Below are positions 12,142-58,548 of a stretch of DNA of 59,715 nt, piece by piece (the stretch's first letter is position 1; each line of letters opens with the position of its first letter). The DNA is from a virus (taxonomy: Duplodnaviria; Caudoviricetes): positions 1 to 59,715 of the IMG/VR virus record IMGVR_UViG_3300033067_002245; one strand, 5' to 3'. The position numbers were made by a program, and so were the translations under genes. The notes below the pieces were generated by a model that saw only the letters and a list, made by a program, of their open reading frames with translations, was not told the DNA's origin and ran no database searches.

Positions 12142-12217
12142 TGGTACTCCTGATAGGAATCGAACCTATATCGCGCATTTCGACAAAAAGCTGCTTTATC
12201 CGTTAAGCTACAGGAGC
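12142..12217 (-). tRNA. tRNA, anticodon GTC (Asp) on an Arg-like body, CCA encoded
   Basis: 76-nt cloverleaf: GCTCCTG acceptor, GCTT-AACGGATA-AAGC D-arm, loop TTGTCGA with a U-U stem mismatch, ATAGG-TTCGATT-CCTAT, ACCA end. Confidence 0.75.
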
Positions 12218-56031: not shown

Positions 56032-56346
56032 TCAGGAGATGTGCTGAAAAGAGGCTTTAATTTGGTTCGGGGTTTCATTTTCTTGGATTTTGTTTGTTAG
56101 AAATTTCTTTGTGCGTTCGGATTGTCTTTTGTATCGGTCAAATTCTGCCCGAAGATCATTAAGCATTGTTCTAAGCCTTTGTGTTTCTATACTGTCTTTT
56201 ACAACAACCTGTATTTCTTCTTTTGAACTGTCCGTAATTTCCGGACGGTTGGCCCAAAAAAGGAAGAATACAACCAGAGCAATCATTAAAATGGCCACCA
56301 CTATTGATAGCCATTTGTAGTACTTTGTTTCTTTTTCGTCTGTCAT
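56032..56346 (-). CDS. Membrane-anchored hypothetical protein
   Basis: N-terminal TM, coiled coil. Confidence 0.6.
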   Translation of the reverse strand: MTDEKETKYYKWLSIVVAILMIALVVFFLFWANRPEITDSSKEEIQVVVKDSIETQRLRTMLNDLRAEFDRYKRQSERTKKFLTNKIQENETPNQIKASFQHIS

Positions 56347-56630
56347 TTGTATTTAAGATTAAATGTGAAAATGTTATCTTTTTGGTCAAATTCTGTATAT
56401 GCTGGATAAACGGTTAGTATCAGTTTGCCGTTTTCGCTGCCATCATCATAATAATAAAGCTCATCCCCATTTCGTTGCGTTTCACATACTACACCTTTAA
56501 AACGGTTATTGTTGAATTTATACAAGGCCGATTCGCCGCCTATATCAAAAACGCGTTCTTTTAAAATTTTCTGTTTTTCGTGATTTATTCTTTCCGCGTG
56601 AAGCTTAATAATTTCGTCAATTCTGCTGTT
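56343..56630 (-). pseudogene. Body of gene whose ATG (58551-58549) is separated by the cassette array
   Basis: Frame open from AAC at 56630 (NSRIDEIIKLHAER...) into ORF 56343..56525; joining at GTT gives a 96-aa ORF starting MNSRID. Confidence 0.8.
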
Positions 56631-56642
56631 ATAAGCAAGCTG

Positions 56643-57464
56643 CTACGTTCCTGCTTCGTTTGACAATTCCGTTTGAAAAGAATTAAAAAAAAGCCCACCG
56701 CACATTTTAAGACGTTGTTCAGCAATTTGACAATATTCTTCTGAAATTTCACTGCCAATGTATTTTCGTTTGTTGTTAATTGATGCAATAGCAGTTGTTC
56801 CACTACCCATAAAACAATCATAAACCAAATCATTTTCATTGCTCCAACTTATTATTTGGTCGGTTGCAAGTTGTTCAGGAAAAACAGCACCTTGTATAAA
56901 ATCCTTTTTGCCTCCGTATAGTGAATATTCAAAAATGTTCTGTTTTATTTTTTGCTCTTTTATAGGTTTATTCTTATGTCCTTTACTTGTTTTACTTTCA
57001 TCTGTTTGGTAAAATGTTCTATTCTTAACTATGTCTTTCCCAGCAAATACACAATCTTCCATAATAGGGTTAAATGTTTTCGGTTTCCCCTTGCTAAAAA
57101 CAAACATATATTCAAAACTTTGCTCATATCTATTATGGTTTAGTGGTATCGGATTTTTCTTTTTGTAAATCATAGTATCGTGCAAATTAAAACCAACAAT
57201 GTTTTTAAAATGAAGTGCCTGTATAAAAGATGTACAACTTTCAGTTCCATTTTTTACACTATCTGCAACAACCCAAACCAAAATTCCACCATCTTTTATA
57301 ATCCTGTATAACTCACTTGCTATTTTTTCAAACTCAAAAGTGTATCCGTTATATCTTCTAATATTGTCATACGGTGGAGATGTTACCACCAAGTCCACAA
57401 ATTTATCAGGCATTTTAGCCATTGTATCAAGGCAATTTTCGTTGTATATTTTATTTATTTCCAT
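56643..57464 (-). CDS. N4-cytosine/N6-adenine DNA methyltransferase, beta class
   Basis: VDLVVTSPPY precedes VYDCFMGSGTT. Confidence 0.92.
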   Translation of the reverse strand: MEINKIYNENCLDTMAKMPDKFVDLVVTSPPYDNIRRYNGYTFEFEKIASELYRIIKDGGILVWVVADSVKNGTESCTSFIQALHFKNIVGFNLHDTMIYKKKNPIPLNHNRYEQSFEYMFVFSKGKPKTFNPIMEDCVFAGKDIVKNRTFYQTDESKTSKGHKNKPIKEQKIKQNIFEYSLYGGKKDFIQGAVFPEQLATDQIISWSNENDLVYDCFMGSGTTAIASINNKRKYIGSEISEEYCQIAEQRLKMCGGLFFNSFQTELSNEAGT

Positions 57465-57533
57465 CCCTTCCTTTTTTTAATTCTTTTTTTAGTGCTTCGT
57501 ATTTAGCTTTTCGTTTAATTAACCGCAGCCAGC

Positions 57534-57664
57534 TTATAACACGTGTTTTGTGCAATAGGGACTGATGTTGTTGATTGAGCTTTACTGCTACTATTTAGCT
57601 TCGGTGGTAGGTTGAAAGTTCTGTTTCCAAAATCCCTACTGCACAAAGCACCTTAACGTTACCA
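57534..57664 (+). repeat. attC-like site 1
   Basis: TTATAAC-A-CGTGTTTTGTGCAATAGGGA...TCCCTACTGCACAAAGCACC-TTAAC-GTTACCA. Confidence 0.75.
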
Positions 57665-57701
57665 GCAATGCTACGTTCACGTTCCATATTTAACTTTCGG
57701 T

Positions 57702-58388
57702 TCAAATGTTTTTAAAAATGCCCCCACCGCACAAATAATATTCACCAATGTATTTTGTATAAGCTGGCGGTATCGCTTCTTTCAGCCCCTTGAAATCCAT
57801 CCAGTCAATTCCGTAAGCAAGCGGGGCGTTCTTTACGGTCTTTGGTTGCATCCCAAGTTTAAAGCGCTTTTCTCTGCTTGCCTTACTCGCTGTTGTTACA
57901 AGTAACGGCAGTTCTGTATGGTCGCATTTGCAAGGCGCAACCAAAGGGAATGATGTTTCAAAGAACCTGTGCCTTTGTGTTCGCAAATTGAACATTGAAC
58001 CGCAAAGCATTGTTGGATTTTTAAGTTCATTTTTTGCCCCTGCCACATTCTCTATGCAATACGGCTTTCCTATTTCATTCAGCAATTCACGCAACACATC
58101 TATCAACTTTTCATATTTACCCTTATGTTCCTTTGGCGTTAAATTGCTATATCCTTGACAGGGCGGTGATGCGTGAATGAAATCGTATTCCTTGCCGTGT
58201 TCTTTCAGGTAAATAATTGCATCGCTCAAAATGAACTTAAAAGGATATTTCGGTTGCGGTTCAATGTCAATTCCCGTTACATCAAATCCCGCTTGCTTAT
58301 AGCCCATTCCTGCACCGCCAGCGCAACAAAATAAATCTAATAATTTCCCCTCGCTTCGCATTTTTAAAAACATTTGTTTCGTTTCCAT
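57702..58388 (-). CDS. C5-cytosine DNA methyltransferase
   Basis: LLDLFCCAGG (I), ASPPCQ (IV), IENV (VI), QRHR (VIII), EAIPP (X); start uncertain (ATG 58388 or a later ATG). Confidence 0.88.
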   Translation of the reverse strand: METKQMFLKMRSEGKLLDLFCCAGGAGMGYKQAGFDVTGIDIEPQPKYPFKFILSDAIIYLKEHGKEYDFIHASPPCQGYSNLTPKEHKGKYEKLIDVLRELLNEIGKPYCIENVAGAKNELKNPTMLCGSMFNLRTQRHRFFETSFPLVAPCKCDHTELPLLVTTASKASREKRFKLGMQPKTVKNAPLAYGIDWMDFKGLKEAIPPAYTKYIGEYYLCGGGIFKNI

Positions 58389-58419
58389 ATTGAACTTTTC
58401 ACTTAATAATCCGCACTGC

Positions 58420-58548
58420 TGGTAACAGCGGTTTTGCAATAGTGGGGTTTTAGTGGTTTATTAATCATTTGTACTTCTATTTAAGTTTAGTGGTGGGCTG
58501 AAAATTTAGGCTTCGATTTTCCCCACCATCGCAAAGCCGCAAAACGTT
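58420..58548 (+). repeat. attC-like site 2
   Basis: TGGTAAC-A-GCGGTTTTGCAATAGTGGGG...CCCCACCATCGCAAAGCCGC-AAAAC-GTT. Confidence 0.75.

Follow-up and report, generated by a model that had tools for sequence, protein, structure and literature searches.

A cassette-specific inner stem and a shared boundary motif frame the cargo of integron-like methyltransferase cassettes in Flavobacteriaceae-type phages

The cassette array

The stretch of DNA analyzed here (hereafter the window) is an entire IMG/VR virus record, IMGVR_UViG_3300033067_002245, with a length of 59,715 bp and an estimated completeness of 89%. Toward its right end lies an array of two cassettes (56628-58545), each holding one DNA methyltransferase gene on the minus strand. 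Both methyltransferases are cargo of integron-like cassettes of Flavobacteriaceae-type phages, and both are enclosed, inside the complementary cassette ends, by a second inverted repeat whose sequence is specific to the cassette. The initial annotation had described two unrelated methyltransferases framed in the same way, and this description holds: the first matches the N6_N4_Mtase family (PF01555, E = 2.9e-40) and the second the C-5 cytosine methylase family (PF00145, E = 5.2e-07), and their inner stems are perfect over 16 nt (56676-56691/57472-57487) and 19 nt (57703-57721/58358-58376), respectively.

Read on the plus strand, a unit consists of GTTAxxxxx, the minus-strand cargo, xxxxxTAAC, a hairpin of 40-120 nt, and AAAC|GTT. 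In cassette 1, the R' box (GTTATAAGCAAGCTGC, 56628-56643) begins with G|TT and pairs with the R'' box (GCAGCCAGCTTATAAC, 57525-57540), the outer inverted repeat spanning 56627-56643/57525-57541 in full. Inside it, two spacers (56652-56675 and 57493-57517, as read from the sequence) carry direct copies of an element that we call box B. The inner arms follow: the left arm at 56676-56691, which is the 3' arm of the coding strand, and the right arm at 57472-57487. Just within the arms, and on the minus strand, lie two copies of a boundary motif, m: a 3' copy at 56693-56703 (coding strand GTGCGGTGGGC), whose in-frame reading is a CGG protein tail, and a 5' copy at 57462-57471 (GGAAGGGATG), which includes the start codon. 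The N6/N4 methyltransferase itself (273 aa, 56643-57464, minus strand) owes its last ~20 codons (56643-56702) to read-through of motif, arm and spacer. Behind the R'' box, a variable, attC-like hairpin of the form L''-loop-L' (57541-57657) ends in an unpaired ...TTAAC immediately before the next G|TT.

Cassette 2 repeats this arrangement with different arms. Its R' box (GTTACCAGCAATGC, 57658-57671) and R'' box (GCACTGCTGGTAAC, 58413-58426) form the outer inverted repeat, box B lies as a direct repeat in the left (57682-57697) and right (58383-58398) spacers, and the inner arms occupy 57703-57721 and 58358-58376. The boundary motif is again present on the minus strand in a 3' copy (57722-57732, coding strand GTGCGGTGGGG) and a 5' copy (58347-58357, GAAGCGAGGGG). 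The C-5 cytosine methyltransferase (57702-58361, minus strand) has an uncertain start, with in-frame ATG codons at 58361, 58373, and 58388 and a TTG-initiated open reading frame (ORF) extending to 58439; its tail, CGGGIFKNI, arises by reading through the motif into the arm. The second variable hairpin (58427-58548) ends in the GTT at 58546-58548 that joins the phage backbone. Sites of attC type, defined as imperfect inverted repeats with ...AAC/GTT... ends and called with a custom hairpin script, were found behind both cassettes (57540-57658 and 58426-58546).

The shared openings and flanking direct repeats that had been pointed out beforehand are likewise present. The opening TGCTACGTTC occurs exactly twice in the window, at 56641 and 57669, in each cassette 43-44 nt before CCCACCGCAC, which itself occurs exactly twice on the plus strand (56694 and 57723). 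The repeats flanking the second stem are TTCCATATTTAACTTT / TTCCATATTGAACTTT at 57682 and 58383, to which the box B pair of cassette 1 is analogous; a box B-type element is also present in both spacers of other cassette types. A reading of box B as a Bacteroidota promoter (-7 element TAnnTTTG) was tried and dropped, the matches being partial and judged by eye.

Cassette ends, hairpins and mobility

The same organization recurs in loci from related phage contigs (designated by L-numbers; copies of the cassette 1 and cassette 2 kinds are termed W1-type and W2). We assembled 79 cassettes by selecting for perfect 8-mer complementarity of the ends, such that start and end of each cassette are reverse complements of one another. 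The end-box stem extends beyond these 8-mers to 15 bp. Its paired positions are variable and co-vary, and in 47 of 57 cases position 11 is a conserved A.C opposition, equivalent to G.T when the coding strand is read. End boxes complementary to each other and G|TT boundaries are hallmarks of integron cassettes. Arrays in the related loci reach 12 units per 10-kb locus, and one 170-kb phage contig carries at least 20 hairpins across ~16 kb. All cargo ORFs lie opposite in strand to the R''-to-R' direction set by the array ends, which places each hairpin upstream of its own gene.

Several lines of evidence bear on cassette mobility. The pattern TGCTACGTTC-N(30-60)-CCCACCGCAC matches 28 other viral contigs. 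In 27 of these, near-identity to cassette 1 sets in exactly at GTTATAAGC, and the DNA before that point differs; the cassette is therefore a mobile unit with its left boundary at G|TT. In bacterial genomes the same pattern gave 14 matches, of which five or six have the W1-type length and lie in metagenome-assembled contigs of Bacteroidota/Flavobacteriales; the other eight have different spacings and are about as many as chance would supply for 20 fixed bases. We also drew on 24 public runs (including those labeled X1 and X3), which consist of assembled contigs, a form of data unable to reveal transcript ends, circles, or rare joints, and in which uncovered parts carry no weight as evidence. 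An X3 contig contains the W2 cassette (57657-58548) in another context with zero differences, and contig ends in runs X1 and X3 begin directly after 58548. A 31-nt stretch of the W2 cassette had no match in viral_contigs.

The hairpins are exchangeable modules that are not inherited together with the cassettes they follow. Behind 19 W1-type copies stand 13 different hairpins, and one hairpin type stands behind several cassette types, a pattern that would fit crossovers to either side of a hairpin. Instances of one hairpin behind different cassettes among L003-L031 include L020:4951-5037, L021:2498-2584, L023:2698-2784, and L031:2340-2425. The long hairpin loops (57560-57637 and 58442-58526 in the window; also in L009, L011, L014, and L020) are made up of two to four direct copies of a ~19-nt unit related to box B, and the public-run contigs include the same hairpins with this repeat-bearing middle part missing.

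Cultured phages share the layout, which should make it experimentally accessible. Flavobacterium phages (37 records, e.g., mumin9-1) carry such an array with three methyltransferases. Polaribacter phage P12002L (L132; 29241-32278 and 38087-38933) contains both of the stem classes described below, class A with a 16-nt arm at offsets of 53/53 nt and class B with a 17-nt arm at 12/13 nt. The end boxes of the P12002L unit holding gp36 mismatch, and this unit is possibly two fused cassettes.

The inner stem

The inner stem was taken to be the longest perfect inverted match that the first 120 nt of a cassette form with its last 120 nt, end boxes excluded. By this measure, 38 of the 79 cassettes have an inner stem of 13-22 nt. 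Among 556 control pairs, in which left and right flanks came from different cassettes, the longest match was 12 nt (two cases) and none reached 13 nt, which excludes a chance origin of the stems. Stems are commoner in long than in short cassettes, and most of the cassettes that have one are long and bear a methyltransferase. W1-type copies retain a perfect 17-20-nt stem in 16 of 22 evaluable cases, a count that leaves out five loci too short to judge.

What is conserved is pairing and position. The arms of class A lie 45-57 nt from the cassette start and 47-58 nt from its end, with box B repeated in both spacers, while in class B they adjoin the end boxes, at a distance of 12-13 nt from either terminus. 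Arm sequence is wholly different between cassette types (as had been expected of the scaffold, many types have stems of unlike sequence in equivalent places), and the arms are AT-rich and of low complexity. At least 13 distinct arm sequences have the boundary motif on both sides, and L027 adds one more. All stems are strictly Watson-Crick with sharp ends and no G.U pair. When the minus strands of the two window cassettes were folded as single-stranded DNA, hairpin, end-box stem, and inner stem—including both arms of each cassette—were paired in the minimum free energy and the centroid structures alike; for cassette 2 the z-score was -5.19, and none of 20 shuffled sequences was as stable.

One methyltransferase family, represented by L003:3565, is especially informative. 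Its ORF fills the cassette such that both arms are read as codons (ALKRF on the N-terminal side, KRFK/N on the C-terminal side), and the arm offsets from the cassette ends are nevertheless those of other cassettes. Among homologous loci with cassette ends, a stem of at least 12 nt is kept in 33 of 38; 35 of 42 other homologous loci do not keep one, a contrast confounded by relatedness because these other loci belong largely to a different subfamily. Within the family, the arms co-vary between GCT..AAAG and GCA..AATG (13 + 13 combinations match and five do not, read by eye), and L019 and L014 differ by two further compensatory swaps that are synonymous on both sides. Identical offsets inside coding sequence, together with compensatory changes, indicate that the stem is tied to the cassette termini and to nucleic-acid pairing, and not to ORF ends or protein. 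These patterns argue for selection on arm pairing.

The boundary motif and cargo exchange

Each arm is adjoined on its inner side by a G-rich motif, G[CG]GN[TAG]GG, whose two copies run in the same direction; on the coding strand, one comes after the 5' arm and the other before the 3' arm. At a distance of no more than 14 nt from the arm, the motif is present in 16 of 23 stem classes on the 5' side and in 15 of 23 on the 3' side, against a background of 72 in 11,914 cargo windows (0.6%). The initial annotation had taken AGGG and TGTGCGGTGGG for two junction motifs, one at each end of the cargo. Both are present, and they are better described as two copies of a single motif in the same orientation. 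The 5' copy often supplies the ATG (GCG-ATG-GC), while the stop codon falls just before, within, or beyond the 3' copy; the CGG tails are thus read-through of the motif, as had been supposed when they were called scaffold-encoded. In keeping with this, the best 120 homologue clusters of methyltransferase 1 comprise 73 with CGG and scaffold read-through, 41 with other tails that lack CGG, and six whose KKA(L/W)EEKRKEK tails are read-through of the motif and arm of a different scaffold. A third stem class (L027) uses the motif GTGCGGTGGG in another frame, so that the framing is a matter of nucleic-acid architecture and not a protein feature.

Other readings of the motif fit less well. The 5' and 3' copies are no more alike within one cassette than between cassettes, and are therefore not a target-site duplication. 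A role as a Shine-Dalgarno site was rejected, since the spacing to the ATG is either 0-1 nt or more than 25 nt. Judged by eye, the motif resembles the distal 3' strand of the hairpins (CCCnACC..GCA).

The frame is not limited to the two genes of the window. Across cassettes it encloses N6_N4, MT-A70, D12, and C-5 methyltransferases—four unrelated families—as well as a helix-turn-helix protein and unknowns, and several unrelated cargos start with the scaffold-derived ATGGCAAAA. Direct traces of exchange come from three sources: L022 joins a W1-type left flank to a different gene and a right arm that does not match; in an X3 contig, W1-type flanks that reach to 56699 and resume at 57461 enclose 662 letters of other sequence; and X1 contigs diverge from the window at 56699 and 57472. 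Recombinant cargo, in other words, breaks at the motif. Among 22 evaluable W1-type scaffolds, however, 21 hold the same methyltransferase family (two of them with a different middle part) and one, L022, another gene, so that cargo swaps are rare among W1-type copies.

Recombinases beside related arrays

The initial annotation had named recombinases and reverse transcriptases as enzymes that might accompany the cassettes; the former were found in relatives and the latter were not. A tyrosine recombinase of 277-298 aa is encoded in three of five records searched, these three being larger related phage genomes with long arrays (L035, G001:C1:108000-116000; L036, G003; L037, G002), one of ~16 kb with the 20 or more hairpins mentioned above. 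In two of the genomes, the gap between the start of the gene and the first cassette is 20-50 nt, and transcription of the gene leads away from the array; in the third, the gene starts within a few hundred nt. Recombinase gene and cassette ORFs share one strand. Against the integron-integrase model TIGR02249, the three proteins score 154.8, 141.4, and 96.4 bits (cut-off 265), with the match split in two stretches, and the best-fitting family is XerA-like, likewise below its cut-off. The array-adjacent IntI-type integrase of a complete integron, with its integron-specific extra domain, is thus lacking on both counts, with no PF00589 match in the window and no score above the TIGR02249 cut-off in the relatives. 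Reverse transcriptase (PF00078) was found in none of the five records. A search for empty scaffolds, that is, stem-motif-stem hairpins, found none in ~300 kb of related loci, and a search of viral_contigs for an empty W1-type scaffold, confined to boxes 80-110 nt apart, likewise found none.

One homologue cluster, P0063, contains a 309-aa ORF with both PF00589 and PF01555, in which a methyltransferase and its scaffold read-through lead into tyrosine recombinase sequence, namely the catalytic motif at the C terminus. This arrangement points to a cassette that directly abuts a recombinase gene.

Interpretation

Taken as single-stranded DNA, a cassette is predicted by these folds to form a two-tier panhandle that closes off the cargo. 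We assign a probability of about 0.5 to a role at the DNA level, in which the inner stem would clamp a cassette's own ends in single-stranded DNA and extend the attC-type fold. In single-stranded DNA, the inner stem would stabilize pairing between the two ends of one cassette; in an excised circle, it would lengthen the attC-type rod and insulate it from the cargo. Such a clamp may favor the action of a Xer-like tyrosine recombinase similar to those encoded beside the arrays of related phages, and the motif could then be a preferred crossover point for cargo swaps between homologous scaffolds. We favor the DNA level because the stem tracks the cassette ends even within coding sequence, contains only Watson-Crick pairs and stops sharply, is more frequent in long cassettes, and adjoins a recombination site. 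The initial annotation had envisaged a conserved DNA or RNA structure loaded with almost exactly one ORF. Recurrent, co-varying stems are indeed present, but they follow the cassette ends and not the ORF, and many cassettes have none.

A number of observations weigh against the clamp. Single-stranded intermediates, circles, and recombinase action are postulates of the model, and neither the window nor mumin9-1 has a tyrosine recombinase (PF00589). A stem of at least 13 nt is absent from 41 of the 79 cassettes, so that the inner stem is not required for a cassette, and it is interrupted in six of the 22 evaluable W1-type copies. Mismatch types at the stem ends show no strand asymmetry, and the co-variation counts ignore the kinship of the sequences. 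The shuffling of hairpins (13 types behind 19 copies) is not predicted by the canonical integron mechanism, and the clamp leaves the role of the motif unaccounted for. Finally, the conserved G.T opposition suggests that the folded strand is the coding strand, in which case a role at the RNA level would fit equally well.

An RNA-level panhandle would have the arms pair in the mRNA, joining the 5' leader with the 3' end and thereby setting transcript ends, stability, or translation of each self-expressed cassette, in the manner of a ribosomal-RNA processing stalk or as a protective or closed-loop structure. Besides the strand of the conserved G.T, this model gains from the position of class A and class B arms just upstream of the start codon and just after the stop codon, and from hairpins that lie upstream of their own ORF and box B repeats that all point in the coding direction, both of which would suit self-contained expression units. 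Against it, the arms of the L003:3565 family fall within codons, at the usual distance from the cassette ends, where a structure marking mRNA ends would be out of place; the stems have sharp ends and no G.U pair; the arms show no consistent A-rich/U-rich polarity; and the RNA data are assembled contigs, which cannot show ends. On balance we regard this model as unlikely. A bolder proposal, close to the cassette-building or second-tier system first suggested for this locus, casts motif m, which sits at the stem mouth, as a specific site for recombination or nicking, through which single ORFs would be loaded into or swapped between attC scaffolds. The motif would then be a second recombination site, and a Xer-like recombinase or a host enzyme would exchange cargo with a scaffold consisting of arm, spacer, box, hairpin, box, spacer, and arm. 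The diversity of the framed cargo, its common scaffold-derived starts, the tight association of arms with directly oriented motif copies on both sides, the exchange of cargo within one scaffold with breaks at the motif, and the presence of methyltransferase 1 relatives in a different scaffold are all consistent with it. But the searches recovered no empty scaffold, reverse transcriptase, or second recombinase; the motif copies do not behave as a target-site duplication; swaps are rare, and the exchange in L022 was one-sided and broke the stem, as ordinary recombination would; and some stems inside coding sequence have no motif at all. We consider both the proposal and its specific form with a second recombination site doubtful, a possibility that the locus raises and not a finding.

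It is, lastly, very improbable that the arms belong to some other kind of element—terminal repeats of a transposon, the ends of an invertible segment, or the halves of a terminator—or that they are fortuitous and without function. The arms are AT-rich and simple in sequence, and some 13-nt matches in short cassettes do look fortuitous (e.g., L014:5523 and L030:7092), but the mismatched-flank control excludes chance for the stems at large and the compensatory changes speak for selection on pairing. Ends bound by a transposase, whether of a transposon or of a miniature inverted-repeat transposable element, would not be expected to differ between cassette types or to hold their direct repeats inside rather than outside the arms. 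An inverton would show cargo in both orientations, and none of 27 W1-type copies has its cargo inverted. The arms occur in both polarities, which defeats a reading as the A/U tracts of terminators.

Relation to known systems

The closest known counterparts are integron cassettes and the clusters of attC sites lacking integron-integrases (CALINs). In Qi et al. (2023; PMC9892861), the P12002L cluster is presented as a CALIN with methyltransferase cassettes, and one of its attC sites is reported to recombine with IntI1. The likenesses extend to single-gene units, imperfect hairpins with ...AAC/GTT... ends and a crossover at G|TT, a cassette start complementary to its own inverse core, and methyltransferase cargo in virulent phages (PMC9892861). 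The sequence of P12002L itself contains the nested architecture described here. The cassettes of the window share with integrons the attC-type sites, the mobile, G|TT-bounded unit, and the start complementary to the inverse core, while the promoterless ORF on the attC top strand with attC downstream is not what is found: the ORFs lie on the opposite strand, and the hairpin stands upstream of its own gene. Beyond this, the end boxes extend over 15 bp and are joined by a second, cassette-specific stem and a boundary motif; hairpins are shuffled and not co-inherited with the cassette; and the array-adjacent recombinase of relatives is Xer-like and below the integron-integrase cut-off. The literature searched, including parts of PMC9892861, holds no description of inner stems, the boundary motif, inverted genes, hairpin shuffling, or an array-adjacent Xer-like recombinase.

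Other systems resemble the cassettes in part. In the sedentary chromosomal integrons of Vibrio cholerae, homogeneous attC repeats accompany unrelated cargo, a pattern read as pointing to cassettes formed locally; there the hairpin is conserved, whereas here it is variable and exchangeable, and conservation is found to either side of the cargo. The dif modules of Acinetobacter plasmids, which depend on Xer, and the folded single-stranded attP of CTX phage have sites with conserved 11-6-11 binding arms. They are alike in that Xer-type recombinases move gene modules bounded by inverted sites or use a folded single-stranded site, but the inner arms described here are conserved only in pairing and position, not in sequence. 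In T4-type phages, promoter-stem-loop (PeSL) cassettes, small repeated regulatory modules of a promoter and a local hairpin, flank accessory ORFs in hyperplastic regions and allow modular shuffling; the long-range, cassette-specific stems and site-specific G|TT boundaries of the present cassettes are absent from them.

How a recombination site comes to be joined to almost exactly one ORF is a standing question about the origin of integron cassettes, and here the boundaries of the cargo carry a conserved motif. The motif, at which recombinants break, and the stems that bracket the cargo boundaries suggest where to place mutations and which junctions to seek; if the motif did act as a second recombination site, it would amount to a natural cassette-forming mechanism. 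The Xer-like recombinase beside arrays, the genes inverted relative to the recombination site, and the exchangeable hairpins are each departures from the integron paradigm. DNA methyltransferases of several families make up most of the cargo and probably protect phage DNA from host restriction, in which case the arrays are likely a shuffling anti-restriction repertoire.

Phage context and probable insertion site

The cassette region lies 1.2-3 kb from the right end of the 59.7-kb phage contig, with phage genes, including those for tail and lysis, upstream of it. A scan of the whole window against Rfam at gathering thresholds yielded a tRNA (RF00005, 55 bits; 12145-12217, minus strand) as its sole match, and the cassettes accordingly match no curated Rfam covariance model.

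The GTT at which the array sits corresponds to the second codon of a small phage ORF. The minus-strand start of this ORF, ATG AAC (58551-58546), is separated by the array from the remainder, whose frame resumes at 56627 with SRIDEIIKLH..., the body of the ORF occupying 56343-56627 by translation. We infer that the small ORF was split by insertion of the array after codon 2. A search for relatives of the split ORF gave 103 pattern matches and no true relative. An ORF of 135 aa upstream of it stops 2 nt before the ATG. In one X3 contig, 56348 is fused to 58554, so that both the array and the small split ORF are absent; the whole interval is thus variable among relatives.

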